NCBI GenBank assembly: GCA_964539075.1
Contig: CAZIFU010000287.1
Location: 15,134-79,133 of the forward strand
Direction of reading: 5' to 3'
Origin: an uncultured Verrucomicrobiota bacterium
Lineage (GTDB): Bacteria > Verrucomicrobiota > Verrucomicrobiia > Limisphaerales > CAZIFU01
DNA length: 64,000 bases
How positions within the stretch are numbered: the first letter of the stretch is position 1; the number at the start of each line of letters is the position of its first letter. This document shows, in pieces, positions 2,273-61,815 of this stretch. The notes under the pieces were generated by a model. That model was not told the DNA's origin. It saw nothing but the letters and a program-made list of their open reading frames with translations, and did no database searches. Both the position numbers and the translations under genes were made by a program.

Positions 2273-2764
2273 TCAACTTAACCCCTGCTGAATCCGCCGC
2301 ATGAGCCGCGGCTCATTCTTCTTCGCAAGCTCATGTTCCCACACGCGCAACACAAGCCAGCCAGCGCCCTGCAACGTGCGCGTCACAAGCGCATCGCGCG
2401 CGATGTTGCCCGCCAGCTTCCGCCGCCAGAAAGCGCGATTGTTCTGCGGCTTCGTCGCGTGCTTCGGACAGCCGTGCCAGAAACAACCGTCCACAAAGAG
2501 TGCGAGCCGCACCTGCCTGAAAACGAAATCGGGGCGCACGGTGAATGGCGGGAAAAACTTCCAACGTCCAACGCTCAACTTTGAACGTTCAATGTTGGAA
2601 GTTGGACGTTGAACGTTTATTCGGATGACCACCTGTCGTCTCCATCCTGAAATCCGGTTCGCGCGCAACACCCGCGCCAGCACCAGTTCCGTGTCCTTGT
2701 TCCCGCGCCCGCGTATGCTCGACATCACCTCCGACCGCTTGGATTTGGAAAAGACATCAGTCAT
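2273..2764 (-). CDS. vsr: Very short patch repair endonuclease with in-frame heptamer-repeat insert
   Basis: MTDVFSKSKRSEVMSSIR, PDFVF, FVDGCFWHGCP, FWRRKL, LRVWEH; insert at about 2558-2617. Confidence 0.9.
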   Translation of the reverse strand: MTDVFSKSKRSEVMSSIRGRGNKDTELVLARVLRANRISGWRRQVVIRINVQRPTSNIERSKLSVGRWKFFPPFTVRPDFVFRQVRLALFVDGCFWHGCPKHATKPQNNRAFWRRKLAGNIARDALVTRTLQGAGWLVLRVWEHELAKKNEPRLMRRIQQGLS

Positions 2765-2775
2765 GAACAAAAATC

Positions 2776-2891
2776 TTTGACGCTAATTTCGCCAATTGTC
2801 GCCAATTCAGATTCGCGCTAATTCGCGCAATTCGCGTCTGAAAACGTCAGCCATTTGTTTTTAACCGCAGATTACGCGGATGAACGCGGAT
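2776..2891. repeat. Degenerate 9-mer-like tandem repeats
   Basis: cgctaattt/cgccaattg/cgccaattc, cgctaattc/cgcaattcg, gattacgcg/gatgaacgcggat; similar tracts at 3938-3970, 4074-4140, 12023-12065. Confidence 0.55.
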
Positions 2892-2929
2892 GCGAAAGGA
2901 GCGCGACCTTCAGGTCGCTTCAACTGTCG

Positions 2930-3187
2930 AACCTCGGCTTTGACATTAAATCTTTCGAGACCGACGGACACGACCGACTGATCGAAGTGAAGACGACTCG
3001 CTTTGGTTCATTGACCCCATTCTTTGCTTCCAAGAATGAAGTGCAAGTTTCCGAAGCGCACGAGGCTGAGTACCAACTTTACCGTCTGTTCAATTTTACC
3101 AGGCAACCGAGACTTTTTGCTTTGCCGGGTTCTCTTCGCAATACCTGTTCCCTTGATCCGATTCAGTTTTCTGCCCTGCCGCGCTGA
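2930..3187 (+). pseudogene. C-terminal fragment of a DUF3883/NO VEIN-C (PD-(D/E)XK-like) protein
   Basis: LGFDIKSFETDGHDRLIEVKTT...FFASKNEV...YQLYRLFNF; N-terminal part replaced by repeats. Confidence 0.6.
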
Positions 3188-3191
3188 ATAG

Positions 3192-3593
3192 CTATTTCAA
3201 CCAGTTGATTTTGATTTCCTTTTCCAGCGGTTTGAAGTCGGTGTCGGCGGTGACGAGTTCGGCTTTTTTGCTTTTGGCTAGCGCGGCGGCAAAAGCATCA
3301 GCCAGGCCGAGGTCGTGCGCGGTTTTCAATTGCGCGGCTGACTCGGCCAGGTCGCGGTCGAGCGGCGCAACGTCCAGTGGCATCGAGTGTTCAAACCGGC
3401 GCGCGGTTTCCCAGCCTTCCTTGCCGTGCTTGTTTTGCATCTTGTAAAGCACTTCCGCCCAGTTGACGGCGCTGATGAGCATGGGCTTGTCGGCGTCGGC
3501 GGCTTTGTGGAAAAGGTCGCGCACCTGTTCCATGCCCGGTTGCCCGAAGAACATGGCCAGCAGCGCCGAGGCGTCGAGAACGGTGGTCTTCAC
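3192..3593 (-). CDS. vapC: PIN-domain VapC toxin
   Basis: VLDASAL, SAVNWAEV, LGLADAF, LVTAD acidic PIN motifs; overlaps upstream antitoxin by 4 nt. Confidence 0.92.
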   Translation of the reverse strand: MKTTVLDASALLAMFFGQPGMEQVRDLFHKAADADKPMLISAVNWAEVLYKMQNKHGKEGWETARRFEHSMPLDVAPLDRDLAESAAQLKTAHDLGLADAFAAALAKSKKAELVTADTDFKPLEKEIKINWLK

Positions 3594-3856
3594 TTGCGGT
3601 TTTCCCGGTCGCGTTCGGCGCGGCGTTCCTCCAGATGCTCCTGCACGACGGATTTTTCGCCGGGCTTCTGTTTGAAGATGCCGCAGAAGGAATCAATGTA
3701 TTCGCGCGTGACGGGCTGGAAGATGATGCGATCACCTTCCTCCACAAAATTGATGCGCGTGCCGGGCTTGATGCCGAACCGGCGGCGGATGGACGAAGGG
3801 ACCACCAACTGGCCTTTGGATGTGACGTAGGCCGAATTCATAACATATTCTTTCAT
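3590..3856 (-). CDS. AbrB/MazE/SpoVT-family antitoxin
   Basis: VTSKGQLVVPSSIRRRFGIKPG swapped-hairpin signature; start at 3856 or 3841. Confidence 0.9.
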   Translation of the reverse strand: MKEYVMNSAYVTSKGQLVVPSSIRRRFGIKPGTRINFVEEGDRIIFQPVTREYIDSFCGIFKQKPGEKSVVQEHLEERRAERDRENRK

Positions 3857-3864
3857 TCGGCCAA

Positions 3865-3893
3865 AGTCTGGCATAGCCAATAATGTAAGGCAA
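3865..3893 (-). promoter_or_regulatory. Putative sigma70 promoter of the AbrB-VapC operon
   Basis: TTGCCT-17 nt-CAGACT with extended TG, 8 nt before ATG 3856. Confidence 0.45.
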
Positions 3894-3937
3894 GAAGTAT
3901 TTTGTAAGACATAAGCACAATGCCTGTTTTGCGTTTG

Positions 3938-4140
3938 AATCAGCGAGTATTAGCGTAAATCAGCGGTTAAACAGATTTCAACACCTCACCAATGCCCTCA
4001 CCCCCAGCCCCCCTCCCATCCGATGGGCGAGGGTGGCGTCAGAGTCTGCCCGATCGAGGCGGAGAGGGAGATGGCTTTTGTGTTCCTTGTGTTCTTTCGC
4101 GGCGATTTCATCCGTGTCCATCGGTGCTCATCCCGTGGTT
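3938..4140. repeat. Cluster of 9-mer-type and CCCTCACCCC-type repeats
   Basis: atcagcgag/attagcgta/atcagcggt; ccctcacccccagccccctccc...gagggaga; tgtgttcct/tgtgttctt. Confidence 0.55.
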
Positions 4141-4166
4141 GAAATGCATAATCAAGGCTAAAGAGC

Positions 4167-4195
4167 TTGACGACGGCGGCGAACGAACCTATCAC
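4167..4195 (+). promoter_or_regulatory. Putative sigma70 promoter
   Basis: TTGACG-17 nt-TATCAC, ATG 6 nt downstream at 4202. Confidence 0.55.
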
Positions 4196-4239
4196 CGCAG
4201 CATGGCCCGTGGAACGTCGCCGCCACGGGCGACACGAAA

Positions 4240-5802
4240 ATGAACGCTCCACACACCCGTCGTGAATTCCTGGCGGATGTCGGCCGCGGCATGTTGGTCG
4301 CCAGCGTCGGCCATGGCATGGCGACCGAACTCGGACTCGCGCCCGCTTTCGCCGCCGAGGCGGCCGACTCACTCGACTTCGGCCCGCTCGAACCGCTCGT
4401 GCGTCTCATGCAGGAGACGCCCGTCAACCGGCTCCTGCCCGCGCTGGCCGGCCAGCTCAAATCCGGCACCGACCTCCGCCGGTTGGTCGCCGCTGCTGCG
4501 CTCGCCAACGCCCGCACTTTCGGAGGTGAAGACTACGTCGGCTTCCACACGATGATGGCGCTCGCGCCGTCGCTGCACATGGCCCACGAACTTCCCGACG
4601 CGCTCCAGCCACTGCCCGTCTTCAAAGTCCTTTACCGAAACACCAATCGCATCCAGGAACGGGGCGGGCGCAACGAGGAGGTCCTGCACGCGGTCAAACC
4701 CGCGACGCTCTCCGAGGGTCTCCCCGGCGGTGAACTTCTCCGCGACGCCGTCCACCGCAACGATGTGAACGAGGCCGAGCAAACCTTCGCCACGCTCGCG
4801 CAACGCAGCGCCGATGACGCCCTCAATCACCTCCTCCACACCGTGCAGGACCAGACCGAAGTCCACCGTGTCGTCCTGCCTTATCGCGCCTGGGATTTGC
4901 TCGACCTCATCGGCAAGGAGCAAGCCCACACGCTGCTCCGCCAATCTGTCCGCTACTGCGTGAAGGCCGAGTCGTGGCAACACACCGCTGCCTTGGACGA
5001 GCCGCGTACGCTCCTGCCGAAATTGCTCGAACGGCACAATCTTCTCGCCCGCGCGCCCGGCACCCGCGCCGTGGAAGACGAGTGGGTCGAGGAACTCAGC
5101 CAGACCATTTTCAAATCCACGCCCGAACAAGCCGCCGAAACCGCCGCCGCCGCGCTCGCCGAGGGTGTTGCGCCCGCCGCCGTCGGTGAAGCCATTTCGC
5201 TCGCGGCCAACCAACTTGTCCTCCGCGACACGGGCCGGACGCCGCGCGACGAAGTGGCCGGCAAACCGCCCGGCAGCGTTCACGGCGACAGCATCGGCGT
5301 TCACGCCAGCGATTCCGCGTGCGCCTGGCGCAACCTCGCCCGCGTGAGCAACGCCCGAAACACCTTTGCCTGCCTTATTCTCGGCGCGTATCAAGTTGCC
5401 CTCGACCGCACCGCGCGCGGCGGTGATTTCTTGAACTGGCCGCCGCTGCCGGTGAAGGGGCATCTCGGCCAGATCAAATCCACCGAGGCCGGCGCGCTGC
5501 TGCGCGAAGCCGATGAAGCCATCCGCCAAAACCTCCAGGGCCACGCCGCCGCCGTCATCCACCGCTATGGTGAACTCGGCCACTCCCCACGTCCGGTGTT
5601 CGACCTGCTGTTGCGCTACGCCGTGAGCGAAGACGGCGCGCTTCACGCCGAGAAATACTACCGCACCGTGACCGAAGAATTCGCCGCGCTGCGCCCGGCG
5701 TTCCGCTGGCGTCAACTGGTGGCGCTCGCCCGCGTCACCGCCAGCGAATACGGCCGGCCCGCGCCGGGGATGGCGGAGGCAAGAGTGGTTTTGAAGGTTT
5801 AA
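4240..5802 (+). CDS. Hypothetical protein with twin-arginine-like N-terminus
   Basis: 520-aa ORF with host-like codon usage; TRREFL motif; His-rich motifs (GFHTMM, VHGDSIGVHASD, LHAEKYY). Confidence 0.8.
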   Translation: MNAPHTRREFLADVGRGMLVASVGHGMATELGLAPAFAAEAADSLDFGPLEPLVRLMQETPVNRLLPALAGQLKSGTDLRRLVAAAALANARTFGGEDYVGFHTMMALAPSLHMAHELPDALQPLPVFKVLYRNTNRIQERGGRNEEVLHAVKPATLSEGLPGGELLRDAVHRNDVNEAEQTFATLAQRSADDALNHLLHTVQDQTEVHRVVLPYRAWDLLDLIGKEQAHTLLRQSVRYCVKAESWQHTAALDEPRTLLPKLLERHNLLARAPGTRAVEDEWVEELSQTIFKSTPEQAAETAAAALAEGVAPAAVGEAISLAANQLVLRDTGRTPRDEVAGKPPGSVHGDSIGVHASDSACAWRNLARVSNARNTFACLILGAYQVALDRTARGGDFLNWPPLPVKGHLGQIKSTEAGALLREADEAIRQNLQGHAAAVIHRYGELGHSPRPVFDLLLRYAVSEDGALHAEKYYRTVTEEFAALRPAFRWRQLVALARVTASEYGRPAPGMAEARVVLKV

Positions 5803-5845
5803 GATCGGGTTGGAATGAGAATCGGCACATTGGGCACAGGAAATT

Positions 5846-6195
5846 CCCTCACCCCGGCCCTACCCATGAACCTCGCTGGCTGCGCAACGATGCGGCAAGG
5901 AGGCGGGTGATCGAAGTCGCGAAGCGCTTGGAGTGCGCCGGCCCCAGCCGGCGCTTTCCACATCATCAACAGCGCCGACTCGCGTCGGCGCACTCTCCCG
6001 CCTTGCGGGACTGACGCGCGGGCGAAGGCTCCATCCGGTTCAGGGGCACAATTCGTGAACTTCGATTCATGGAATTTCCCCCTGAGGGAGAGGGGGAATC
6101 TTGGCCAGCGTGTTCGCAATCCGAGCGCGCCCGGGTTGGTGTAGGACTGGATACCGTTCTCCCTCTCCCCCTGGGAAAGGATTGGGGTGAGGGCA
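5846..6195. repeat. Nested repeat cluster
   Basis: CCCTCACCCC element interrupted by a CCCATGAACC...GGTTCAGGGG shell (5863-6046) that contains a TTGGAGTGCG-type hairpin pair. Confidence 0.65.
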
Positions 6196-6289
6196 CCGCT
6201 TTATCGTTTGTCCCGATTATTACTGGGAAATGGTATGACTCGACCACGTTCCACCGCGTCCGACGGGCGTTTCGCCAACCAGGGAACCT

Positions 6290-7663
6290 TCAATACTCCC
6301 GATGCTTTTTGATGCCCGGCTGCGGGATGGGATACTTGCCGTCGGCGTCGGCGGGCAGCGGCGAGGGTGAATTCATCGTCAGCTTGTCCACGTCCGGCGC
6401 ATACTCGTGCTCGTGGTTGAGCATCTCCTCGAACGTGATCTCCTGGCCGGTGTGCGCCGCCATGCGGCCCATGGAAGTCACGAGGCTGGCTTCGACGCCG
6501 CGTTTGACTTCGTTGTAAGGCTTGTCGTCGCGAATGGCATCGAGAAGATCGTGCCATTCGTTGCTGTAGGGATCCGCCTCGCCCGGTTTGACATCGGAAG
6601 TCCAGATCAGCTTGTCGCGCTGCGGAGACAGGCCTTTGTAGGTGCTCGAAGGCAATCCGCAGTCGTTATGCGCCGAGGCGATCGCCATGCCTTTGGTGCC
6701 ATGCACGTAGCTGGAGTAAATCGGCAGGGCACCCACCATGCAGCGGCCGTCCATGAGGAACTTGGAGCCGTCGGCGAACGTGTATTCCACTGAATAGCTG
6801 TCGAAGTTCTGGTCAATGTCGTTGCCGCGATAATGCCGGCCGCCGATCGCCTGGGCCTTGACCGGCCAGGCGTTCTTCATCCAGCAGAGATGATCAATGT
6901 GGTGGATGTAGAAGTCGCTGAACCCCCCGCCGCTCGCCCAGAGGAAGCTGTGGAAACGTGAAATCTGCCACAACAATTCACTGGGTTGGCCGGGCCATTT
7001 TTCCGAGAATGCCGACCCGATCGGTCCCTGCATCCGGTAACCGCGCATGAGAACGATGTCGCCGATTTCGCCGTCCTGAATGCGGTGCTGCAGTTCCTGG
7101 AGCGCGCGGCTGTGACGTGACATCAAGCCCACGCCGACTTTCAAGTTCTTCGCCGAGGCCTCCTCCGCGAGCTTGAGCATGCGGCGCGAAGTCGGGCCGT
7201 CCGCCGTCAGCGGCTTTTCCATGAAGACGTTCAGGCCCTTTTGGATGGCGTAAGTAAAATGCACCCAGCGAAACGCCAGCGGCGTCGTGAAGATGACGAT
7301 GTCGCCCTTCTTGAGGCAATCCACCGCCTTCTGGTAACCGTCGAAGCCGATAAACTGGCGGTCTTCGGGCACGTCCACCTGTTTTTCGAATTTTTCCGTC
7401 AACGCGTGGTGGCTGCCCTTGAGCTTGTGCTCGAAGACATCGGCCATGGCGACGAGTTTGGGCGGGCCGCTGCAGGCCAGCGCGTTGGCGGCGGCGCCGG
7501 TGCCGCGGCCGCCGCAACCCACCAGCGCCAACTGGATATTGTCGCTCCCGACGGCGTGGACGTGCGGGAGGGCCACGCCGGCCAGGGCTGACGCGGCGGC
7601 GAGGCGGGTGCTGTTCTTCAGAAATTCGCGGCGTGAGGTGAGCAGGTTTTGGTTTTCGTTCAT
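6290..7663 (-). CDS. Tat-exported Gfo/Idh/MocA oxidoreductase
   Basis: SRREFL signal, ALVGCGGRGTGA, FMEKP motif. Confidence 0.9.
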   Translation of the reverse strand: MNENQNLLTSRREFLKNSTRLAAASALAGVALPHVHAVGSDNIQLALVGCGGRGTGAAANALACSGPPKLVAMADVFEHKLKGSHHALTEKFEKQVDVPEDRQFIGFDGYQKAVDCLKKGDIVIFTTPLAFRWVHFTYAIQKGLNVFMEKPLTADGPTSRRMLKLAEEASAKNLKVGVGLMSRHSRALQELQHRIQDGEIGDIVLMRGYRMQGPIGSAFSEKWPGQPSELLWQISRFHSFLWASGGGFSDFYIHHIDHLCWMKNAWPVKAQAIGGRHYRGNDIDQNFDSYSVEYTFADGSKFLMDGRCMVGALPIYSSYVHGTKGMAIASAHNDCGLPSSTYKGLSPQRDKLIWTSDVKPGEADPYSNEWHDLLDAIRDDKPYNEVKRGVEASLVTSMGRMAAHTGQEITFEEMLNHEHEYAPDVDKLTMNSPSPLPADADGKYPIPQPGIKKHREY

Positions 7664-7717
7664 AAAGCCATCTTCCTGACGTTCGCGAACCGATGTCAAT
7701 TCAAGAAGTCAGCCCGG

Positions 7718-7807
7718 TTTGGAGTTCACGCTTTAGCGTGTCTGCGCCGTTTGGAGTTCACGCTTTAGCGTGTCTGCGCTGACAGCCTAAAGGCTGGACT
7801 CCAAACT
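7718..7807. repeat. GGAGT-type REP-like hairpin with tandemly duplicated left arm
   Basis: tttggagttcacgctttagcgtgtctgcgc occurs twice, then acagcctaaaggctggactccaaac. Confidence 0.75.
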
Positions 7808-7833
7808 CCGGACATTCACGAACTGCTCCGCAC

Positions 7834-9417
7834 TTACATCCCATCCCGCAGAATCTCCCGCGCGGCGTTGTAGCCGCACGCGCCCATCACGCCGCCGCCC
7901 GGATGCGTGGCCGCTCCGCACAGGTAAAGACCGCGGACCGGCGTGCGATAGTTCGCGTAGCCGGGGACCGGCCGCAGGAAAAAGAGCCGGTGCAGGTGCA
8001 TCGCGCCCTGAAAAATGTTGCCGCCGGTCAGGCCATAACGCCGTTCCATGTCGAGCGGCGAAAGCACCTGGCGGGCAATCACCGCGCGGCGGAAGTTCGG
8101 CGCGTACTCGTTGAGGATGTCGAAGCACCGGTCGGCGAATTTTTCCTTCACGTCATCCCAGCTCGCGCCGCGCAGGTCCGTCGGCGCATACTGGACGAAC
8201 AGGGACATGAGATGTTTGCCCGGCGGCGCGACCGTCGGGTCCACCACGGACGGGATCGTGCCTTCCAGGATCGGGGATTCCGAAGGGCGGCCATATTTCG
8301 CGTCGTCGTAAGCGCGCTCGAGGTAGTCGAACGTGGGCGAGATATGGATCGTGCCGCGATGCTGCGGGCCGGCTTCCCTGCCCGGCAACGCCTTGAAGTC
8401 CGGCAGTTCGCCGAGCGCCACGTTGATTTTGAGCGAGGGGCTGGTGTAATCAATTCCGCGCACGGACTCGACGAAGTCGCCCGGCAGTTCGGCCGGGTCC
8501 ATCAGCTTGAGGAATGTGACATGGGCGTCGGCATTCGACACAACGGCGCCAGCGCGCAGCTCGGTTCCGTCTTCGAGCACGACGCCGGCCGCACGGCCGC
8601 GCTCGACGAGAATTGTTTTCACCGGCGCGTTGCAGCGAATCTCCGCGCCGCGCTCGCGCGCCGCCGCGGCCAGCGCGTTGCTGATGCCGCCCATGCCGCC
8701 GCGCACGTACCCCCAGACGCCGCGCGCGCCGTTGCACTCACCCATGACGTGGTGAAAAAGCACGTAGGCCGTGCCTGGCATGGACGGCGAGGCCATCGCG
8801 CCGATGATCGCGTCGGTGGCCAGCGTGACTTTGAGTTGTTCGGACTCGAACCAGCGGTCGAGAATGGGCCGCGCGGCGCCGGTGAGGATTTCGATCGCCT
8901 GCGCGCCGTCGCGGCCGAGTTTGCGGAAGCGCCAGGCCAGCCGGGCGAGTTGCGCCAGGTCGCGCCACCGTCCCGACCACGGGTCGGGCGGCGTCTGCAG
9001 GAGCGTCGGCTCGATGAAATCGGCCACGCGTTCGAGCATTTTTTCGTAACGGGGCAGCGCCGCGGCGTCCTTCGCGGAAAATTTGCTGATCTCGCGCCGG
9101 TTCAAGTCCGCGTCCGGTCCGAGCAACAGGTGACGGCCATCGGGGAACGGCGTGAACGAGGAAGGATTGCGCGGCAGCAGCTCGTAGCCGTGGCGCGGGA
9201 GATCGAGGTCGCGGATGATTTCGGGCCGCAACAGGCTGTTCACGTAGGCGGCGGTGGAGACTTTGAAGCCGGGCCAGATTTCCTCCGTCACGCAGGCGCC
9301 GCCGACCAGTTCGCGCCGTTCCAGCACGAGCACGCGCCGGCCCGCGCGGGCCAGGTAGGCCGCCGTCACCAGTCCGTTGTGCCCCGCGCCGATGATGAGA
9401 ATGTCGTAGTGAGCCAT
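7834..9417 (-). CDS. NAD(P)/FAD-dependent oxidoreductase, phytoene desaturase/PYROXD2-like
   Basis: IIGAGHNGLVTAAYLA, VLERR, C-terminal LYLCGAATHPGGGVMG. Confidence 0.9.
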   Translation of the reverse strand: MAHYDILIIGAGHNGLVTAAYLARAGRRVLVLERRELVGGACVTEEIWPGFKVSTAAYVNSLLRPEIIRDLDLPRHGYELLPRNPSSFTPFPDGRHLLLGPDADLNRREISKFSAKDAAALPRYEKMLERVADFIEPTLLQTPPDPWSGRWRDLAQLARLAWRFRKLGRDGAQAIEILTGAARPILDRWFESEQLKVTLATDAIIGAMASPSMPGTAYVLFHHVMGECNGARGVWGYVRGGMGGISNALAAAARERGAEIRCNAPVKTILVERGRAAGVVLEDGTELRAGAVVSNADAHVTFLKLMDPAELPGDFVESVRGIDYTSPSLKINVALGELPDFKALPGREAGPQHRGTIHISPTFDYLERAYDDAKYGRPSESPILEGTIPSVVDPTVAPPGKHLMSLFVQYAPTDLRGASWDDVKEKFADRCFDILNEYAPNFRRAVIARQVLSPLDMERRYGLTGGNIFQGAMHLHRLFFLRPVPGYANYRTPVRGLYLCGAATHPGGGVMGACGYNAAREILRDGM

Positions 9418-9553
9418 GACCACGGCCATCCAACCAGAACTGCGCGTAAAAACGAAGGAGGATTCGTACAAGCCGGCAGGGAACGGCGGGGAACGGTTGA
9501 CTTTCGCGGTTTCTCCCGTAGCGTCGCTCGCAAGTTGCGCCGCCGCGCCCGAC

Positions 9554-11656: not shown

Positions 11657-11838
11657 CCGTGCAAGGCGCTGACACGATCCAATGCCCGTTCTGCGGCCAG
11701 CGCTGCGAGCTGGTCATTGACACCAGTATCGCCTCGCAACGATTCACGACGGACTGCGAAGTGTGCTGCCGGCCGTTCGAGGTAATCGCCGAGTGTGAAG
11801 AAGGCGAGGTGGTGAGCCTGGAAGCGCGTGCGGGTTAA
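11653..11838 (+). CDS. CPXCG-motif cysteine-rich protein
   Basis: CPFCG...DCEVCCRP; GTGA overlap with ptrB stop. Confidence 0.85.
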   Translation: MTVQGADTIQCPFCGQRCELVIDTSIASQRFTTDCEVCCRPFEVIAECEEGEVVSLEARAG

Positions 11839-11875
11839 TTGACTGGAAAAAGAACGCCGCGCGGCGGAGCCGCAA

Positions 11876-11965
11876 CCAAAAACATTGAACACTGGACATC
11901 CAACATCCAACATCGAACGCCGGACTTCGAAGTTCCCGTGCGCCAGTCAGTTCGATGTTCGATGG
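11876..11965. repeat. Heptamer-tandem hairpin
   Basis: (CCAACAT)n-like arm and ttcgatg/ttcgatg inverted arm. Confidence 0.65.
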
Positions 11966-12077
11966 GAAAATCGTCGCGGTGCGCGACGATTTAGACGGAT
12001 GCGACTGCAGAGATGAAAGGCCGTGAATTCATTTCTTTGTGTTCTTTGCGTTCTTTTGCGGCTATTTTCCAAACCTG

Positions 12078-12374: not shown

Positions 12375-12395
12375 GTTCCTTTCCGCTTCTTCGTT

Positions 12396-43501: not shown

Positions 43502-43506
43502 GAGGG

Positions 43507-46150: not shown

Positions 46151-46156
46151 GAGCTT

Positions 46157-51237: not shown

Positions 51238-51265
51238 CGGGCAACCTTCGGGAGCCGTACGTTGG

Positions 51266-52365: not shown

Positions 52366-52373
52366 GGTGAAGA

Positions 52374-52991
52374 TCACTCGGTTGTTACCTCGAACCCCTC
52401 AAAGCGCTGTTCCCAAACTTGCATCAACGGTCGCCAGTCATTCCCGTCGCCAGCCCTCAGTGCGGCGAAATAATTGGACTCGCCTGCGGTCTCCGTGGGA
52501 ACAAGGTCAACCGGCGGAAGTTCCAACCGGCGGAGCAATTCACGAAGAAAGAGACGGGTGACACGACCATTGAAATCGTTGAACGGATGGATCGAGAGCA
52601 GGCGCCCCTCGGCAAACGCGAGCATTTCCAGGAGCAGGTCATCCATCTTCCTGCTGGCATTTTGGAGACGCACACGAAGGTTCTCGCTGTAGTCACGCAT
52701 GAGGATGGGCACGCGAAACGGCGGTGGTGGGTTGTGCTCGCCGACCGTCACCTCGGCGTCGCGCCACCGACCCGCCCATTCGGGCACCAGATCAGCGGCG
52801 ATTTCAGAATGAAAACGCAGGATGAGTTCGCCACCGGGGTCTTGGGCAGCAAAAGCGCCTGAAGCAATGGCGGTTTCCACGCGGAGCACACGTTCGGCCA
52901 GCAGCGGCGCCAACTGCGAATAACTCAGGAGGCCGCTTGTGGTTTGAATGAAGCGGGTCGCTCCGCCTGGCGGTGTAGTTTCTCCAGCCAT
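52374..52991 (-). CDS. Fic-domain protein (class I toxin candidate)
   Basis: HPFNDFNGRVTR, a variant of HPFx(D/E)GNGRxxR. Confidence 0.88.
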   Translation of the reverse strand: MAGETTPPGGATRFIQTTSGLLSYSQLAPLLAERVLRVETAIASGAFAAQDPGGELILRFHSEIAADLVPEWAGRWRDAEVTVGEHNPPPPFRVPILMRDYSENLRVRLQNASRKMDDLLLEMLAFAEGRLLSIHPFNDFNGRVTRLFLRELLRRLELPPVDLVPTETAGESNYFAALRAGDGNDWRPLMQVWEQRFEGFEVTTE

Positions 52992-53122
52992 GATTGGTCA
53001 ACGGCCTCCTTCTCGAACGCCATGGACAGGGCCACCTGGCGCGGAATCCGCCGCCAACAAATCTCCTGCCGGGCTTCAGCATTGAGCCGCCGCCAGCGTT
53101 GGATGGTTTCAGTCCATTTCAT
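52925..53122 (-). CDS. Small protein, candidate FicA-like antitoxin
   Basis: Directly upstream of and overlapping fic; SMAFEK resembles the (S/T)xxxE(G/N) inhibitory motif. Confidence 0.6.
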   Translation of the reverse strand: MKWTETIQRWRRLNAEARQEICWRRIPRQVALSMAFEKEAVDQSWLEKLHRQAERPASFKPQAAS

Positions 53123-53128
53123 GCCGGA

Positions 53129-53157
53129 ACATTACTGCCGATGCGGTAGCCAGACAA
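53129..53157 (-). promoter_or_regulatory. Putative sigma70 promoter of the Fic cassette
   Basis: TTGTCT-17 nt-TAATGT, ATG 6 nt downstream. Confidence 0.6.
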
Positions 53158-53159
53158 GA

Positions 53160-53324
53160 CTACAATCCGCATAACATGCGGATGACTGTGGACTTGCCCG
53201 AGCCATTGGGACCGAGGAAGCCGAAGATGGACCCCTTGGCCACGCTGAACGATACGCCATCCACAGCGGTGAAATGCCCGAACCGCTTGGTCAGGTTTTC
53301 GCAGTGGATCATCGCGTCGGGCAT
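53160..53324 (-). pseudogene. Duplicated, truncated 5' end of the ABC ATPase gene
   Basis: 54 codons match 52204-52365 with 16 mismatches, 14 synonymous, then TAG. Confidence 0.95.
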
Positions 53325-53332
53325 GAGGCAGC

Positions 53333-54791
53333 CTATTCGGGTAGGCGCAGTTTCCAGAGAAACTCGTCCGTTGCGATGTAAACGGAATTCTTGGCAACCA
53401 CAGGCGAATGGTAAAGCCCCAGAGGCAACTGAAAGCGGCCAAGACATTTCTTTTTCCTGCCGGCCGCGAACACAATCAAGTCACCGTCATCAGTTCCGAC
53501 CAGAACCTTGCCGTCTGCAAGGCAGGGCGAGCCATAGTAACAACCGCGCGCGCCGTCAGCGAGTCGGCTGTGCCAGATTTCTTCCCCGGTCTTTTCATCC
53601 AGGGCAAATAAAACGGCCTGCCAGCCCAAGACATAAACGATTCCGTCGGCCACGGTGGCCGAGCCGTAAGTGCTGCCGAACTCTGGATGTTGAAATGTCC
53701 AGCGCACGGCTTTCGCAGTAGCGTCGCCACGATGCCCGAGGGCAATGGCGTAAAGCGGCGCGTTGGTTTGAGGTTGCTCAAAGTCATTGTTCAGACCGAC
53801 ATAGATCGTATCGCGATGGACAGTCGGAGTTCCTACGAAGAAATTTTTCCGGTTTTCGGGATACAAACCGGATTCCACTGCTCGCCAGTCGTTCGCCGCA
53901 GGTTCCGTGCAATTGGCCTTCCAAATCTCCCGTCCAGTCTTCGGTTCAAATCCATACAACCATCCATCCCCCCCCGGGAAAAATCACCTGGTCCACGCCG
54001 TTCACTCGCGCAACGGCGGGCGAAGACCACTGGCCATACATGATTGCCTGGCCCGGCGCGTGACTGCTCCAAACCACTTTGCCGCTCTCCTTGTCCACCG
54101 CCAGAAATGACGGCGCGGAACTCGGTTCGCCTGACGGACGGCAACCTTCGCCGGTAACGCAAAACACCAAGTTGCCCGGCACCATGGGCGAGCAAATCGG
54201 ATTGCCTACGTCGCCCGCATCCCGCTTGAAGACGCCGAGCTCTCGAACCATGTCGAGTTTCCAGATGAAGTCGGCGTCGGTCGGTCCGGTGAGGTCCTCC
54301 GACGTGAAAGGGCTGTTGTTCTTGCCGTCGCGGAAACCCTCCATGTCCACGCAGACCAACTCGCCACGATTGCTCACATACAACGCGCGCCCGCCTTCCA
54401 CCCACGGGCGCGAATTGATGAACCCCAGCATGTCGTTGACACGTTCTGGAAGTCTGGGATGGGCTGACTGCCACAGAATCTCGCCCGTCTGGCTGTTGAA
54501 GCACTTCAGCGCACCACCCTCTTCCGCGATCTTGTGAGTGCGCGGATCCTCTCTTTGAAAACTCGTGCCAACCAGAATCTTTTCGCGCGAGAGCGCTACT
54601 GCGCCGGAGTTCCAGCCAATCTTCGCGCGCCAGATCACATACTTGCCGCCATCCTTGGTGCAATCCCAAACCGGAGCTTTTTCCACCTCGGGGTCTATTT
54701 GAGCGCGAAGAGCGTTCGCAAGGGACAGCATCAGGACGAACGTCAGCGCGAGGCAACGAAACGTTCTTGATCGGCAGTTCTTTCGTTTCAT
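53333..54791 (-). pseudogene. PQQ-binding-like (BamB-type) beta-propeller protein split by a +1 frameshift in a G8 tract
   Basis: ORFs 53946-54791 and 53333-53959 join as FPGGDGWLYGFEPKTG if the G run at 53968-53975 is G7. Confidence 0.8.
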
Positions 54792-54806
54792 AACGTTGTC
54801 TGGTTC

Positions 54807-54831
54807 TTACTTTGCCACGATCGGGAACGTC
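54807..54831 (-). repeat. Short diverged copy of the hlyD 3' end
   Basis: g-acg-ttc-ccg-atc-gtg-gca-aag-taa (TFPIVAK*) versus 55539-55563 g-acg-ttt-ccc-ggc-ttg-acg-aag-tga (TFPGLTK*); 17/25 nt identical. Confidence 0.45.
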
Positions 54832-55180
54832 ACGATTCCGGCGGAGGATTTGCGGCCAGATAAGCCTCCAAGCGCGCGATCAAGGGTGGAAGGTCTCGTT
54901 GCACGGTGTCCCACACGACATCCAGGTCCACATCGTCGTAGTCGTGGATGAGAATGTTCCGCATCGCGGTGATCAGCTTCCAGGGGATCTCGGGGAAAGT
55001 TTTGAGGGCTTCGGGAGACAGTCGGCGGGCGGCTTCGCCGATGATCTCAAACTTGCGGTTCACCGCTTCATACTTTTCTTCGTTTGCCTTGAAATCCTCG
55101 CGGGAGACGCCGCTGGTGAATCGCCGGATGGCTTTGGCAGCTTCGAGAATATCCTCCAGATAAGCATTATCCTTCGGCAT
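54830..55180 (-). CDS. hepT: HEPN (DUF86) RNase toxin
   Basis: EIIGEAA, IPWKLITAMRNILIHDY (RX4H), DVVWDTV. Confidence 0.92.
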   Translation of the reverse strand: MPKDNAYLEDILEAAKAIRRFTSGVSREDFKANEEKYEAVNRKFEIIGEAARRLSPEALKTFPEIPWKLITAMRNILIHDYDDVDLDVVWDTVQRDLPPLIARLEAYLAANPPPES

Positions 55181-55475
55181 AAATCGGCGTTGCCGTGGAA
55201 AGGATGGAATGTTTACGGTAGCGATTGCGGCTGCGCTCAATGGCGCGGCGGCTCACCAAATCCACCGGACGACCGAACAACTCTGCTAACTTTTCCTGCA
55301 TATCCGCCCAATCGAGCAGCGTCGGACGCGCATCTGAACGAAGCGTGGCCAGCAGATCAACGTCGCTGTCACCGCGAAAATCATCGCGCAGCGCCGAGCC
55401 GAACAATTCGAGCCGGGCAATGCCGCGTTCCCGGCAGAATCGTCCAAGCTTCTCGCGATTGAAGTTCAGCTTCAT
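55167..55475 (-). CDS. mntA: Minimal nucleotidyltransferase antitoxin
   Basis: LFGSALRDDFRGDSDVDLL, GRPVDLV. Confidence 0.92.
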   Translation of the reverse strand: MKLNFNREKLGRFCRERGIARLELFGSALRDDFRGDSDVDLLATLRSDARPTLLDWADMQEKLAELFGRPVDLVSRRAIERSRNRYRKHSILSTATPIYAEG

Positions 55476-55481
55476 GCTGCT

Positions 55482-55510
55482 GTTTTACCATTTTGAATCG
55501 GCGCTGTCAA
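55482..55510 (-). promoter_or_regulatory. Putative sigma70 promoter of the MNT-HEPN cassette
   Basis: TTGACA-17 nt-TAAAAC with extended TG, ATG 6 nt downstream. Confidence 0.6.
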
Positions 55511-55538
55511 AATCGCCCTGTTCGCGCGTTTTGTGATT

Positions 55539-56501
55539 TCACTTCGTCAAGCCGGGAAACGTCGCCTCCACCGACATGCCGGCGCGCAGTTGGCCGTCGG
55601 GATTCTCCAGCCGCAGCTTCACGCCGAAGACCTGCTTGATGCGCTCGTCGGCGGTCTGCACGTTGCGCGGGGTGAACTCGGCGGCGCGGCCAATCTGCTC
55701 GACCGCGCCCTTGAACTCCCTGTCGGGGAACGCGTCGGCGCGAGCCGTTACGGCGTCCCCAAGTTGGATGTGTCCCAGCCACGGTTGCGGCACGAAGACG
55801 CGCACCCAAAGATGATTGGTCAACAGCAGCGTGGCCACCTCGCGGTTCGGCGCGAGCACGTCGCCCGGCTTCACGCTCAACACTTCGAGCACGCAATTGG
55901 TCGGCGCCGCGATGGTCATCTCGCGGAGCTGCGCGTCGGTCTCGGCCAGTTGCGCGCGCGCCTGAGCCAGCCGCTCCGGCCGCGTGCCCGCCAGCAGCAG
56001 GTCGTAACGCGCCTTGGCGGCGGCGGCGCTTTTCTCCCGCGTGGTCGCCTGGCTCACCGCGCGGTCGCGCTCGGTTTCAGAAACCGTCTTGTCGCGGAAC
56101 AATTCCTCAGCGCGCTTGCGCTCGGTGCGGGCGAGGTCCAGTTCGGCCAGTTGCGCCTCCCACTCGGCCTGGACGGCGGCGATTTCCTCCTTGCGCGGGC
56201 CGGCTTCCCACTCGGCGAGCATCGCGGCCATTTGTTCGCGGCGCGCGCGGAGTTCGGCGGCGTCGAGCTGGACGATGGGCTGGCCGGTTTGCAGTGCGTC
56301 GCCTTCCTGCGCAAAAATTTTCTCCACGCGCCCGCCGTAGCGCGAGGCGACGCGGGCCTCGTCGGTTTCAATCGTGCCGGAGACGCCCGCCCGGTCCGCG
56401 GGGAAAGCCGCCCGGTCGCAGGCCGCCAGCAAAAGCAGCGGCAGGAGCGCGGCGCCGAGTGTGATGCCAGAATTGATGTTCACCCGGCGCGAACATAGCA
56501 A
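55539..56501 (-). CDS. HlyD-family secretion adaptor (YbhG-like lipoprotein)
   Basis: LLAAC lipobox, VSGTIE, VASRYGGRV, AEFTPRNVQT, LRAGMSV. Confidence 0.9.
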   Translation of the reverse strand: MLCSRRVNINSGITLGAALLPLLLLAACDRAAFPADRAGVSGTIETDEARVASRYGGRVEKIFAQEGDALQTGQPIVQLDAAELRARREQMAAMLAEWEAGPRKEEIAAVQAEWEAQLAELDLARTERKRAEELFRDKTVSETERDRAVSQATTREKSAAAAKARYDLLLAGTRPERLAQARAQLAETDAQLREMTIAAPTNCVLEVLSVKPGDVLAPNREVATLLLTNHLWVRVFVPQPWLGHIQLGDAVTARADAFPDREFKGAVEQIGRAAEFTPRNVQTADERIKQVFGVKLRLENPDGQLRAGMSVEATFPGLTK

Positions 56502-57243: not shown

Positions 57244-57312
57244 CCCGCACTGCGGAAGAAGATTTTCCGCGCGCGGACGGCGAAATAAACCGGGAGGCGA
57301 AGATTGTCCGGA

Positions 57313-57397
57313 AAACCTTGAACCCTGAACCTCGAACCTTGAAGATCGGCGCCGAACCGGGTGGCGTTCAAAGTTCGAGGTTCAAGGTTCAAGGTTT
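57313..57397. repeat. Heptamer-tandem hairpin between convergent genes
   Basis: (GAACCTT/C)n arm and (TTCAAGG)n inverted arm. Confidence 0.75.
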
Positions 57398-57481
57398 GTT
57401 TGGTTGCGGCTTTGCCGCGTCAGTCCTTTATGTCCTCGTTGTTTGACTATTTGCCCGATTCAGGAACAAGCGCCACCGTGG

Positions 57482-58567: not shown

Positions 58568-58598
58568 GAATAAGATGCCGTTTCAAAAGTCTCATTTG

Positions 58599-58675
58599 GT
58601 GGGGCGAGCGTCCTCGCGAGCCCTGACTCGGTGAAGCCTTATTGATTCGAAGGCTCGCGGGGACGTTCGCCCCAC
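58599..58675. repeat. GTGG-type REP pair
   Basis: gtggggcgagcgtcctcgcgagcc / ggctcgcggggacgttcgccccac. Confidence 0.8.
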
Positions 58676-58722
58676 CTTTTTGAAACGACTTCCCAAAGCA
58701 GGAGCTCCGCGCGCCGGGCGGT

Positions 58723-59592
58723 TCATTCGAATTGCGGGTGCGCTTGCAAACGTTCCCAGGTCCCGGGCGACAGCGGCGCCTGGCGGTAAACGGGTTCCCC
58801 GAGCGGCTCGGCGCTGGTCGAGTTGCGCGCGCGCTTCAACCATTTCCGGTCGAGCGGCTCCTCGATCAACGTCCGCGTGTTGGCGGCGATGGTGGTTTCC
58901 TCCTTCTCACCCGTGGCGTGGCCGGCGCCGACGAAGAAGCCCGCGAGCAACAGCGTGACGCGGAGCATCGTGCTGCGCGAGTAGGTCGGCAGCGCGCAGG
59001 GACGCTGCGCATCGAGCAGCCGGAACAGGTTGGTGAACAATGGCAGCGTCCACATCGCCGGATTTTTCGCCGGTGAGAACGCATCGAACAAAATCGCGTG
59101 CGGGGCGGGGAGCGGGGAAGCGGGCGAGCGGGCAAGTGAGCGATGGAGAAGAGAAGGGAAATCGCCGAGGTGAAGTTCCCAGGCCACGTTCTGCCGGGCG
59201 TCGCGGAAATTCACGTGGTGCGTTTTGAGAAGCGTTTGCAACGGCGTTCCGTAGCCGCCGAAGTAGCCGAGCGCGTCGGCGTGTTCGAGCGCGAATTCGA
59301 GCGGCTCCAACGTCCGATCGAAACTGACCAGCCGGAGCGTCGCGGGGAGGTCGCGCGTGGCCCGCAGCACCGTGAGCGCGTTGGCAGCGGCGCCCAGGCC
59401 CACGTCCCAGACCACGAATTCGCCGTGATGGTCGCGTAGTCGCTCGACCAGCCGCAGTTGCCTGACATAAAGCGCCTCCGCCTCGGCGACGGGGCCGATG
59501 ACGGGATGAAACGTTTCGCGCTCGGCCAGCGAATGGACGCTGTGCACGCCGCAGGCCAGCCTCACCATTTTGTAGCCGGAGAGGGGTGGCAC
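58723..59592 (-). CDS. MnmC/MnmD-like SAM-dependent tRNA methyltransferase
   Basis: ETFHP, EAEALYV, WDVGLGAAAN, LFDAFSPAKNPAMW, TYS, KEETT. Confidence 0.8.
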   Translation of the reverse strand: MPPLSGYKMVRLACGVHSVHSLAERETFHPVIGPVAEAEALYVRQLRLVERLRDHHGEFVVWDVGLGAAANALTVLRATRDLPATLRLVSFDRTLEPLEFALEHADALGYFGGYGTPLQTLLKTHHVNFRDARQNVAWELHLGDFPSLLHRSLARSPASPLPAPHAILFDAFSPAKNPAMWTLPLFTNLFRLLDAQRPCALPTYSRSTMLRVTLLLAGFFVGAGHATGEKEETTIAANTRTLIEEPLDRKWLKRARNSTSAEPLGEPVYRQAPLSPGTWERLQAHPQFE

Positions 59593-59598
59593 AGCGGG

Positions 59599-61815
59599 TC
59601 AACGCACGGCGCGTTTGCGTTTGCCGCCGCGCGGGTAGCGGACTTTGACAGGGGCGGCGGGCGACTGCATTCCCAGTGCACCGCGTTTGAGTTCGTTGAT
59701 CTGATCGCGGAGCAGCGCGGCTTTTTCGAACTCCAGGTTGTTGGCGGCTTCGAGCATTTCGGCTTCGAGTTCGCGGAGGGTCTCGGTCACGTCGAAGTTG
59801 CCGCCGGCTTCGTTGATCACGGCCGCGGCGCGGGCGGAGCCTTCGCGATACACCGCCAGGCTGTCCTCGACGGCGCGGCTGACGCTGCGCGGGGTGATGT
59901 GGTGCTCGCGGTTGTAGGCGAGCTGCTTCTCGCGGCGGTAGTTGGAAATGGCCAGAAACTTTTGAATGCTCTGCGTCATCACGTCGGCGTAAAGGATCAC
60001 TTCACCGTTCAGATGGCGTGCGGCGCGGCCGGCGGTCTGAATCAAACTCGTCTCGCTCCGGAGAAAACCTTCCTTGTCAGCGTCGAGAATGGCGACGAGC
60101 GACACCTCCGGCAGATCGAGGCCTTCGCGCAGCAGGTTGATGCCGACGAGCACGTCGAACTCGCCCTTGCGGAGCCCGCGCAGAATCTCGACACGCTCGA
60201 TGGCGTCAATCTCGCTGTGCAGGTAACGGACGTTGATGCCGATGTCGCGGAGGTAATCGGTCAGTTCCTCGGCGGTGCGCTTGGTCAGCGTGGTGACGAG
60301 CACGCGCTCTTTTTGCTCGACCCGTTTGCGCGCCTCGTTGATGAGGTCATCAATCTGGCCCTTGAGCGGTTTGACGGTGATGACCGGGTCCACCAGGCCG
60401 GTGGGGCGGACGACCTGTTCGACGACGCCGGAATTTCCACTGCCCAGGCCCTCGCTTTGCGGGACCACCCTCTCCCCACCCGATGGGGAGAGGGACGGGG
60501 TGAGGGGTGCTCTTGTTTCTTCCGTAGCAGCCGACGTGAGGAGGCTCTGATCAATGTCCTTTGAAGAATGAGCCTCCTCACGTCGGCTGCTACGAACTTG
60601 AAGGGCACTCTCCCCTGCCCATTGAATTTCCCGACCGCCTGGCGTGGCGCTGACATAAATGGTCTGGTTCTGGTGGCCTTGAAACTCGCCGAAGTTCAGG
60701 GGGCGATTGTCGAGCGCGCTGGGGAGCCGGAAACCGTGCTCGACGAGGACGGTCTTGCGCGAGCGGTCGCCTTCGTACATCCCGCCGATCTGCGGGACGG
60801 TGGCGTGCGACTCGTCAATCACAAGCAGGAAATCCGGCGGGAAAAATTCCATCAAGGTGCAGGGCCGCGAACCGGCCGGCCGGCCGGTGATGTGGCGCGA
60901 ATAATTTTCAATGCCGGAACAAAAGCCCATCTCCTCCATCATCTCCAGGTCGTACTCGGTGCGCATCTTGACGCGCTGGGCTTCAAGCAGTTTGCCGTGC
61001 TTTTCGAACCACGCGATGCGGTCGCCCAGTTCCTCGCGGATGGTCAGGACGGCGCGCTTTGTTTTTTCAGCGGGCGTGACGAATTGTTTGCCGGGGAAAA
61101 CGGTGACCACTTCCAGGCCCTCGATTTTGTCACCGGTGAGCGGCTCGAAGCGGGTCAGGCGCTCCACCCGGTCGCCGAAAAACTCGATGCGCAACGCGTC
61201 TTCCACGTAGGCGGGGCACAGTTCGACGGTGTCGCCGCGCACGCGGAACTGGCCGCGGGTGAACTCGATGTCGTTGCGGTTGTATTGCAGGTCCACCAAA
61301 CGGAGGAGGAACTGGTCGCGGGTCAGTTCCTGGCCGGCGCGCAAGTGGACGAGCATCGTCTCGTAATCCTCCCGGCTGCCGATGCCATAGATGCACGAGA
61401 CGCTGGCGACCACGATCACGTCGCGTCGCGCGAAGAGCGAACTCATCGTCGAGAGCCGCATCCGCTCGATCTCCTCGTTCACGCTGGAATCCTTCTCGAT
61501 GAAGGTGTCGGTGCGCGGGATGTAGGCTTCGGGCTGGTAATAATCGAAATAACTCACGAAATACTCGACGGCGTTGCGCGGAAAAAAACTTTTGAATTCG
61601 GCGTAAAGCTGCGCCGCGAGCGTCTTGTTGTGCGAGATGACGAGCGTGGGCTTGTTTACGTTTTGGATGGCATTGGCGATGGTGAAGGTCTTGCCGGAGC
61701 CGGTGACGCCGAGCAGCACCTGATGCTTCGCGCCGGACAACAGCCCCTCGGTCAGCTTCGCAATCGCTTGCGGCTGGTCACCGGCGGGCGCGTATGGGGC
61801 GACGAGTTCGAACAT
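59599..61815 (-). CDS. uvrB: Excinuclease ABC subunit B with ~60-aa repeat-derived insert
   Basis: [50 protein letters not shown]-terminal UVR domain. Confidence 0.97.
60459..60593. repeat. In-frame GTAG REP hairpin plus CCCTCACCCC element inside uvrB
   Basis: Perfect 23-bp arms at 60524-60546 and 60571-60593; second element at about 60461-60507. Confidence 0.9.

Follow-up and report, generated by a model that had tools for sequence, protein, structure and literature searches.

Heptanucleotide tandem arrays, often paired as hairpins and often in frame, in the DNA of an uncultured Verrucomicrobiota bacterium

Tandem arrays of 7-nucleotide (7-nt) units recur throughout a 64-kb stretch of DNA from an uncultured bacterium of soil and sediment, a member of the phylum Verrucomicrobiota (GenBank contig CAZIFU010000287.1, positions 15,134 to 79,133 of the forward strand), which is referred to below as the window. 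These heptamer arrays are often paired as hairpins and often read in frame within enzymes, an observation that was first made in an initial annotation of the sequence and is confirmed here. Our preferred interpretation, which we hold with moderate confidence, is that the arrays are simple-sequence repeats (SSRs) with a 7-nt unit, the verrucomicrobial counterpart of the cyanobacterial STRR (short tandemly repeated repetitive) sequences, and not copies of a mobile element. The STRR sequences were reportedly described by Mazel et al. in 1990.

In cyanobacteria, heptanucleotide repeats were recognized 35 years ago, and since 2007 they have counted as the dominant class of long SSR in prokaryotes; we found no published description of heptamer arrays in Verrucomicrobia. 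What is new here is the phylum, the large share of in-frame genic copies of a unit that is not divisible by 3, the repeated colonization of identical loops in a protein, and the upper limit on array size. A second, unrelated phylum provides an independent comparison for finding the cause of such repeats, for example among replication and repair genes common to repeat-rich lineages. High G+C content makes most units stop-free, and this lineage therefore reveals what cyanobacteria hide.

Period-7 arrays in the window and in related DNA

The G+C content of the window ranges from 57 to 65% along its length, in a genome of 63% G+C. Tandem Repeats Finder returns 21 rows with period 7. Exact matching of tracts of at least 3 copies gives six tracts at period 7, one at period 6, and none at period 5 or at periods 8 to 15, while a near-exact scan, in which one mismatch is tolerated in every 14 positions, yields 10 arrays of period 7 versus 0.1 in Markov shuffles and again none at periods 8 to 15. 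The individual 7-mers of the initial annotation are present where it had found them.

A single period is common to many unrelated units, as had been proposed. The 10 near-exact arrays of the window comprise nine canonical units, with further degenerate arrays in the Tandem Repeats Finder list, and 70 arrays from subdivision-3 relatives comprise 37. Relatedness among units is at the random level, with a nearest-neighbor distance of 1.22 versus 1.39 ± 0.115 for random heptamers of matched composition. Descent from one degenerate unit family was considered and is ruled out, since the units are as distant from each other as random heptamers. The suggestion that stop codons filter the units is borne out by the 80 arrays of the window and the subdivision-3 loci, none of which has a unit with stops on both strands (9% expected). 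As in STRR and heptanucleotide SSRs, a head-to-tail 7-nt unit exceeds neighboring periods, and multiple unrelated units are dispersed through one genome.

Exact arrays of about three or more copies were also counted by lineage. Subdivision-3 loci together with the window (664 kb) hold 61 period-7 arrays, where none are expected, along with 2 at period 8 and 8 at period 5 (12.8 expected). A single period-7 array was found in 519 kb of Opitutae and 29 in 220 kb of cyanobacteria. A further 80 metagenome loci, retrieved by means of HrpB, contain 36 arrays at period 7 and none at period 8, and a scan of viral contigs for (TCCGCAM)n retrieved 40 loci that together hold 122 period-7 arrays versus 2 at period 8. 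The excess in subdivision-3 loci, HrpB-found loci, and viral contigs indicates a lineage-wide genome signature that reaches phage-like DNA. In one phage-like IMG/VR contig (L186, positions 1-13338), which has genes for major head and head-tail adaptor proteins, almost every gap between genes of the same direction holds an array, and most of these arrays begin 0-9 nt past the stop codon. Among the viral loci as a whole, 34 of 108 arrays are found no more than 15 nt from the 3' end of a gene. At locus L175 (221-593), inverted arrays of one unit (GTAGCCG/CGGCTAC) flank a small open reading frame (ORF), 250 nt apart.

The window was assembled from metagenome data, and de Bruijn contigs are interrupted at arrays, both of which could raise the suspicion of an assembly artifact. 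We regard this as extremely unlikely. The same arrays and the same design occur in many independent assemblies, long-read metagenome-assembled genomes (MAGs) and isolate cyanobacterial genomes included, while the reading frames stay open through the arrays and the encoded peptides are conserved between species.

Arrays within enzymes and their behavior across relatives

Nine of the 13 array loci in the window are genic. All nine are in frame, in the genes for Vsr, HrpB, an ABC ATPase, and a U32 peptidase, where they occupy loops, linkers, and termini of the proteins. Pfam agrees with the initial annotation on the identity of these four hosts, the repeated peptides NPKSEIR, TSNVQRP, HSALRTP, RFTIYDL, and NAECGMR are encoded as it had read them, and its claim that the arrays colonize proteins in frame holds for each of the four. 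Of the 80 arrays in the window and the subdivision-3 loci, at least 45 are located in ORFs whose third-position G+C content (GC3) carries a coding signal.

The Vsr gene (2273-2770, minus strand) contains a palindrome of CCAACGT/ACGTTGG-type units with no spacer (2555-2618), which adds about 25 residues (..INVQRPTSNIERSKLSVGRWK..) before the conserved RPDF segment. The Pfam match to this protein is broken into two stretches, and the alignment of E. coli Vsr structures to it begins only past the insert. The HrpB gene (12396-15194, plus strand) carries two solo arrays. The first, (GAAATCC)x4.6 at 12547-12578, lengthens the loop that separates helicase motifs I and Ia by nine residues (NPKSEIRNP), and a solved DEAH-type RNA helicase aligned with the window HrpB shows an 8-residue gap at this loop. 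The second, (TCCAACG)x4 at 14203-14232, encodes PTSNVQRPK in a linker that is variable in every relative and holds other arrays in some. The ABC ATPase gene (35689-36555, minus strand) ends in an array of CACTCCG (sense strand) x4.6 at 35696-35727, which forms the C-terminal tail of the protein immediately upstream of the next gene's overlapping start.

The U32 peptidase gene (47286-50030, plus strand) contains five array sites, all variable. These are an N-terminal extension with (TCCGCAC)x3.9 (47336-47362, residues 17-26), an interdomain linker hairpin of (GATTTAC)x4.3, a 42-nt spacer, and (GTAAATC)x4 (48219-48318, residues 312-345), a solo degenerate array of TTCAAGG/TTCAAAG (48552-48589, residues 423-435), a hairpin of (GGAATGC)x4.6, a spacer, and a decayed (TCCGCGC)-type arm (49044-49131, residues 587-616), and a degenerate CCCCAGA array (49276-49301, residues 664-672). 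A sixth variable site, at residues ~185-205, contains a different palindromic element. The period can also be read from the protein. Among 120 U32 homologues, residue repeats at lag 7 number 244, versus 0, 7, and 9 at lags 5, 6, and 8, as scored by a 3-match test because the arrays have fewer than five units. A native conserved motif accounts for about 50 of these repeats, and the others lie in the six variable sites. In an AlphaFold model of U32 (mean predicted local distance difference test score, pLDDT, 67), residues 1-25, 186-202, 319-342, and 588-612 fall below 50, and the two remaining variable sites fall in loops.

Comparison with relatives gives insight into how these sites behave over time. 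The 80 most U32-similar genomes are led by subdivision-3 Verrucomicrobia, Limisphaerales, and Pedosphaera MAGs at up to 73% identity, followed by Opitutae and cyanobacteria. The nearest relative is locus L081, at 77% identity, which has the gene order DciA, epimerase, U32 in common with the window (45542-47356 in the window, 8304-9847 in L081); beyond these genes the neighborhoods diverge. Arrays at one site can be absent, present, or of a different unit in relatives. The HrpB loop between motifs I and Ia is empty, in a 16-residue form (MLLDAGLAGDKKIVVL), in about 60 relatives, whereas inserts at exactly this spot, with unrelated units, are found in the window and in L092, L086, L089, L084, L113, and L124, and arrays have been gained independently at this loop. 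Relatives thus show presence/absence differences, which the initial annotation had proposed to look for among strains. These inserts measure 24, 27, 30, 39, 72, and 87 nt, two of them being full hairpins, and no common junction is seen at the inserted arrays. Of the six U32 sites compared between the window and L081, two keep their element, one array differs in length, one is made up of a different unit, and one is missing; at the linker, L081 has a palindrome resembling repetitive extragenic palindromic (REP) elements in place of the heptamer hairpin. The array that L081 lacks is the one at residues 664-672, a site that holds arrays in other relatives. Residues 423-435 are occupied by other units in relatives, and the N-terminal site has an array in many of them, with a TCCGCAA unit in several.

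Arrays, once present, are inherited vertically, their units are homogenized within each array, and the two arms of a hairpin are homogenized separately. The U32 linker illustrates all three. Most close relatives have a GATTTAC-type hairpin here, and across species the 3' arm reads [A/C]AATC[G/C]N, with L004, L009, and L026 each carrying its own variant in all copies. The arms of L004 are (ATTGCGG)4 and (CCGAAAT)4, which mismatch once per unit. A perfect complement of GATTTAC would place an in-frame TAA in the 3' arm, and this stop is removed in three ways, as CAA in the window (by a T>C change) and L011, as GAA in L001, L005, and L013, and as TCA in L006. At residues 587-616, L081 retains the 5' arm GGAATGC and has a perfect array of TCCGCAC as its 3' arm, leaving one A.C mismatch per unit, and in the HrpB insert of L113 the arms are no longer complementary. 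Finally, the N-terminal U32 array has four units in the window versus one in L081, a difference of exactly 21 nt.

A reciprocal swap of units was also observed in U32. The window has TCCGCAC in the N-terminal array (47336-47362) and TCCGCGC in the 3' arm at 49106-49131 (residues 607-616), and L081 has the opposite arrangement, which hints at ectopic conversion between arrays.

Near-perfect arrays of four or more units in four genes could bring to mind contingency loci, that is, phase-variation switches in which any change of one unit shifts the frame, and as 7 is not divisible by 3, slippage within a gene would indeed switch that gene off. Such a role is very unlikely here. The hosts are housekeeping enzymes (HrpB, Vsr, U32, and the ABC ATPase) with no surface or restriction-type genes among them, no frameshifted variant was seen in two metagenome samples where an array was spanned, the differences between species are in frame, and genic arrays gather interruptions. 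What the protein comparisons do convey is that arrays enter conserved enzymes freely, with six sites in one U32 gene, and persist across species. Genic arrays therefore matter for annotation, for alignments, and for structure prediction, and provide a natural map of insertion-tolerant loops.

Hairpins, copy number, and the origin of the arrays

Single-strand folding identifies four strong hairpins, at 2550-2625 (z -4.6, in the Vsr gene), 48205-48330 (z -4.9, the U32 linker), 51258-51405 (z -3.8), and 57305-57405 (z -6.5). Two further folds are weak, with z about -1.7. One is the second U32 hairpin (49035-49140) and the other (11885-11975) covers a degenerate intergenic pair downstream of an S9 peptidase gene, composed of (ACATCCA)x3.3 at 11896-11918 and (GTTCGAT)x2.1 at 11950-11964 on the plus strand. 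The solo arrays at 12547, 14203, and 48552 show no fold by the same method. When 127 arrays of the window and of non-cyanobacterial loci were examined for inverted partners of two or more units within 120 nt, 29 had one, compared with 2-4 for reversed or complemented control units. The inverted arms described in the initial annotation are therefore real, but they are not universal and accompany a quarter to half of the arrays. In the source metagenome, many other loci contain (GGAATGC)n followed by a 3-35-nt loop and a near-complementary array, so that the hairpin design is a general one, with unrelated loops.

As a possible seed for solo arrays, a snap-back copy of neighboring native sequence was considered and set aside: a single reverse-complement unit lies beside 17 of 98 solo arrays versus 6-9 in controls, a weak enrichment in the systematic test. 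Suggestive individual cases are AATCCG-AAA-CGGATT at hrpB and GCGGAA-ACCA-TTCCGC at U32.

Two of the strong hairpins are intergenic. The first (51268-51412, minus strand) occupies the gap between an ABC ATPase gene (51403-52377) and an ABC-2 permease gene (50116-51237) and reads, on the mRNA strand, AATGACG AATGACC, a spacer, and (TTCGTCA)x5. The TGA stop of the ATPase gene (51403-51405) lies within its second unit, in accordance with the earlier description of GAATGAC as intergenic or stop-supplying. The second (57314-57396) lies between the convergent phosphoribosyltransferase and dus genes and consists of (AACCTTG)x4.3, a 22-nt spacer, and (GTTCAAG)x4.4. In an RNA-labelled run, contigs enter its 3' arm from the dus side, although coverage is too thin, and the contigs too devoid of direction, to serve as evidence of a transcript end.

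These placements could suggest that the arrays are selected cis-elements, kept for roles at the RNA or DNA level, for example as transcript 3' ends or stabilizers, as intergenic sites for translational coupling or standby, or as targets of a protein that recognizes 7-nt units, with genic copies as by-products. The first hairpin covers precisely the stretch between the ATPase stop and a point just upstream of where the permease gene starts, the second sits between convergent genes with RNA-labelled contigs reaching into it, and many of the viral arrays described above lie close to gene 3' ends. Similarly, STRR hairpins between hupS and hupL, made of 7-bp tandem repeats, have suggested roles in stability and coupling (PMC2670836), and in Beggiatoaceae the arrays of TAACTGA are positioned just upstream of start codons (PMC4679880). 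As an account of the arrays in general, however, selection for such roles is unlikely. At least half of the arrays are within coding sequence, the sense strand of one operon carries a unit in both orientations, the unit sequences are unconstrained, and arms lose their complementarity (in L113, in L004, and between the window and L081). Most relatives do well with empty sites, and tolerance alone predicts placement next to stops and starts in compact genomes. Intrinsic terminators were also ruled out as the identity of the heptamer hairpins, since scanning for the consensus detects fewer of them than in shuffled sequence, with none located at these hairpins. No known RNA families or tRNAs were found within the window. 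A functional role for some intergenic copies is nevertheless plausible.

Read depth separates the arrays from their surroundings. The source is a freshwater-sediment metagenome, and contigs of two source runs were mapped to the array loci. At the U32 linker, the flanks and the spacer have a depth of 12-16x (12.7x for the spacer), the imperfect 3' arm 20-55x, and the perfect array (48216-48251) approximately 5000x, and the sequences beyond this array in other contigs are no more alike than chance predicts. In hrpB, the GAAATCC array is likewise multi-copy with unrelated flanks, and the hairpin spacers within the window are unrelated to each other. The initial annotation had treated the hairpins as a family of elements, a description that does not survive these data, in which only the pure array is multi-copy and the spacer is single-copy. 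A mobile hairpin family that moves as a unit is ruled out by the depth spike limited to the pure array and by the unrelated flanks. No transposase, reverse transcriptase, or REP-associated transposase is present within the window, in line with the earlier remark that no obvious mobilizer could be seen.

We infer instead that the arrays arise and turn over by replication slippage, which would persist because 7-nt loops exceed the size handled by MutS-type mismatch repair. Inverted arms may arise through strand or template switching. Selection would afterwards remove arrays that break genes, so that the genic survivors would be those that are stop-free in frame, have a total insert length divisible by 3, and lie in termini, loops, or interdomain linkers, while outside genes the arrays would fill short intergenic spacers. 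A few intergenic hairpins may then have gained a use at transcript ends or in the coupling of adjacent genes. The homogenization within arrays and the 3-unit step at the U32 N-terminus point to slippage-type events.

Several observations weigh against slippage as the whole explanation. Array length was surveyed in the window and in loci L001-L037 and L082-L161. Perfect arrays cluster at 26-33 nt, with none longer in 664 kb, and arrays with one mismatch peak at 31-34 nt and drop at 35 nt, long-read assemblies included. Two-copy heptamer duplications occur at only 1.9 times chance. This humped, capped distribution and the scarcity of two-copy forms are not as stepwise slippage predicts. A few units also recur across many loci and genomes, AATCCGC accounting for 10 of the 70 arrays in subdivision-3 relatives, and pure array words reach hundreds of times genome abundance in the metagenome. 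Contigs spanning the 14203-14232 array show no copy-number variant in two samples, and contigs break at arrays of approximately 27 nt or more, the single array that was spanned being 26 nt. In addition, the U32 gene holds about half of the heptamer arrays of the window. The ceiling is not shared by all systems, as the longest arrays reach 123 nt in cyanobacteria and, in a few cases, 152 nt in viral contigs. Any mechanism that is proposed has to account quantitatively for the capped length, and the departures from the stepwise model are compatible with a dynamic that has a threshold and a ceiling, with selection on arm size, or with a dedicated generator.

A dedicated generator would be a host or phage enzyme that, in a single step and with a 7-nt register, writes or inserts whole arrays of about 30 nt, frequently in inverted pairs. 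A reiteratively copying polymerase, a primase, a reverse transcriptase, or a hairpin-targeting nuclease or transposase would be among the candidates, and the arrays would then stem from an active and possibly selfish process. The humped lengths, sharply capped at 26-34 nt, and the few two-copy precursors are consistent with this idea, as are the arms of about 30 nt, similar in size to those of the window's other palindromic families (24-33 nt), and the presence of the same units at very many loci. Arrays at nearly every gene junction of a phage structural module, a patchy distribution across lineages (subdivision 3 and Nostocales with arrays, Opitutae without), and the REP-like palindrome at the U32 linker of the nearest relative, as if hairpin sites draw hairpins, can be read in the same way. 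We nonetheless consider a generator improbable. Apart from the lack of candidate mobilizing genes in the window, the junctions, spacers, and flanks are not conserved, the insert sizes at the one HrpB site differ, the units are as diverse as random heptamers, each arm drifts and homogenizes independently, and one difference between species is a clean 3-unit step. A broader version of the idea, in which a dedicated activity common to Pedosphaerales-type Verrucomicrobia, their phages, and perhaps Nostocales writes 7-register arrays of about 30 nt into tolerant sites, is in our view distinctly improbable. If it were true, its signature would be the ceiling at about 34 nt, the missing two-copy precursors, and the arrays at phage head-module junctions. 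An SSR with a 7-nt unit, probably made and turned over by slippage, remains the interpretation that we prefer.

Other palindromes and comparison with known repeats

The window contains further palindromes and repeats in addition to the heptamer arrays. An intergenic hairpin of the same design with a 6-nt unit, (TCCTCG)x5, a 16-nt spacer, and (CGAGGA)x5 (26468-26543, fold z -8.3), is nested in a bigger palindrome at 26425-26585. A (GGGTGCG)x3.3 array (42551-42574) lies in a repeat-rich stretch where a confident gene call is absent, although an ORF at 42117-43199 is listed, and is adjoined by REP-like doublets. These belong to a REP-like family with a GTAG head (CGTAGC[CA]GCCGACGT..), found as doublets at 42152-42307, 43345-43502, 44147-44202, and 60523-60594, three clusters of which fill 42079-43506 and its vicinity. 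The copy at 60523-60594 has 25-nt arms of 100% complementarity and lies in frame in uvrB (59599-61815); the initial annotation had taken it as the right end of the span of heptamer elements, whereas it is a REP-like, non-heptamer palindrome. REP-like families in the window are also in frame in U32 and hrpB, and a GTAG element occupies the U32 linker in L021, L023, L032, and L081.

A second palindromic family, GTTYGGAGT-hairpin-ACTCCRAAC, is found at 7717-7806, 39023-39086, 26389-26400, 12950-13000, and 47834-47897, and includes a perfect 32-nt tandem duplication at 7717-7779. It is in frame in HrpB (..PPSGG..PEGGTPN) and in U32 (..FGVQPSG..EGWTPN), where its 25-nt arms are 100% complementary and conserved in L081. 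The palindrome GGGACTCGCGTAGCTCGTCCCTCCG has two copies, 47129-47209 and 50035-50100, one on each side of the U32 gene, which with its flanking and internal elements amounts to eight hairpins or arrays in 3 kb. A palindrome of CCCTCTCCC..GGGAGAGGG type lies at 13733-13790, in frame in HrpB, and at 34378-34516, between genes and with 41-nt arms; the HrpB copy is multi-copy in the source metagenome, with a depth of 70-160x versus 15x. Just downstream of hrpB is a tandem duplication (15133-15459) of two copies of a 166-nt unit with 79% identity. Two stretches of lower G+C content, 1-4000 (0.57) and 52000-56000 (0.60), may be acquired islands. In the first, the Vsr gene adjoins an ORF with an NOV_C domain (2855-3187), and the second contains an ORF with a Fic domain (52374-52991) and several ORFs with no Pfam match.

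Rickettsia palindromic elements are made up of a few families of 100-150 bp with conserved sequence. Like the heptamer arrays, they are hairpin-forming repeats that lie in frame in conserved proteins at places that the fold tolerates, and the in-frame insertion into conserved proteins and the empty sites in relatives seen here are features of these elements and of hairpins resembling miniature inverted-repeat transposable elements. They differ in that their sequence is conserved, while the verrucomicrobial arrays share a period only, with unrelated spacers and flanks and with no conservation across arms, loop, and ends. The initial annotation had put them forward as the known precedent for repeats in coding regions; cyanobacterial STRR and heptanucleotide SSRs are closer (PMC4692102, PMC4679880, PMC2670836). 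REP elements and REPINs, which are associated with REP-associated tyrosine transposases (RAYTs), are likewise short dispersed palindromes and often doublets (PMC3116915). They have a conserved sequence, a GTAG head, and a cognate transposase, however, and the heptamer hairpins have no conserved GTAG-head palindrome, nor is a Y1 transposase present within the window.

Heptanucleotides are the most abundant long SSRs in most prokaryotic genomes, with polymerase slippage suggested as their source, according to Mrazek, Guo and Shah 2007 as relayed by PMC4692102 and PMC4679880. The likeness to the present arrays lies in the over-representation of heptamers relative to neighboring periods. As presented in those two papers, coding repeats are mostly of units divisible by 3, whereas in the window the 7-nt unit is common in genes, and the relayed description does not include hairpin pairing or a size ceiling. 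The GGGAATC repeats of Xanthomonas and the GGGGA(T/C)T repeats of Nostoc are also heptamer arrays, some in inverted stem-loop pairs, that differ in length and sequence among close relatives at the same intergenic sites (PMC4692102). Each is part of a single G-rich, quadruplex-prone, mainly intergenic family, whereas the verrucomicrobial units number in the dozens, are mostly not G-rich, and are in many cases genic. In Beggiatoaceae, TAACTGA forms arrays of 2-6 copies at gene junctions, and stops within the unit dictate where and in which orientation it is tolerated (PMC4679880). This similarity is offset by the use of a single unit, nearly always in one orientation just upstream of starts, with only one inverted pair.

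The most extensive resemblance is to cyanobacterial STRR, which have a 7-nt unit, many unrelated dispersed units per genome, some inverted hairpin pairs between genes, and occasional arrays inside genes, as in the window. One STRR has been reported inside the RNase P RNA gene, going by the title of Vioque 1997 as cited in PMC2858038. The cyanobacterial loci examined here have diverse units, a small number of inverted pairs, and, within the U32 gene of a Calothrix (L069), one array that is in frame. The host is different, since the original STRR belong to heterocyst-forming cyanobacteria, and the window belongs to subdivision 3, with 63% G+C and with subdivision-3 Verrucomicrobia, Limisphaerales, and Pedosphaera MAGs as its closest relatives. 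Placement also differs, as STRR and heptanucleotide SSRs are predominantly intergenic and at least half of the verrucomicrobial arrays are in frame in protein genes. Lastly, the verrucomicrobial arrays rarely exceed five units, while those of cyanobacteria extend to 123 nt.

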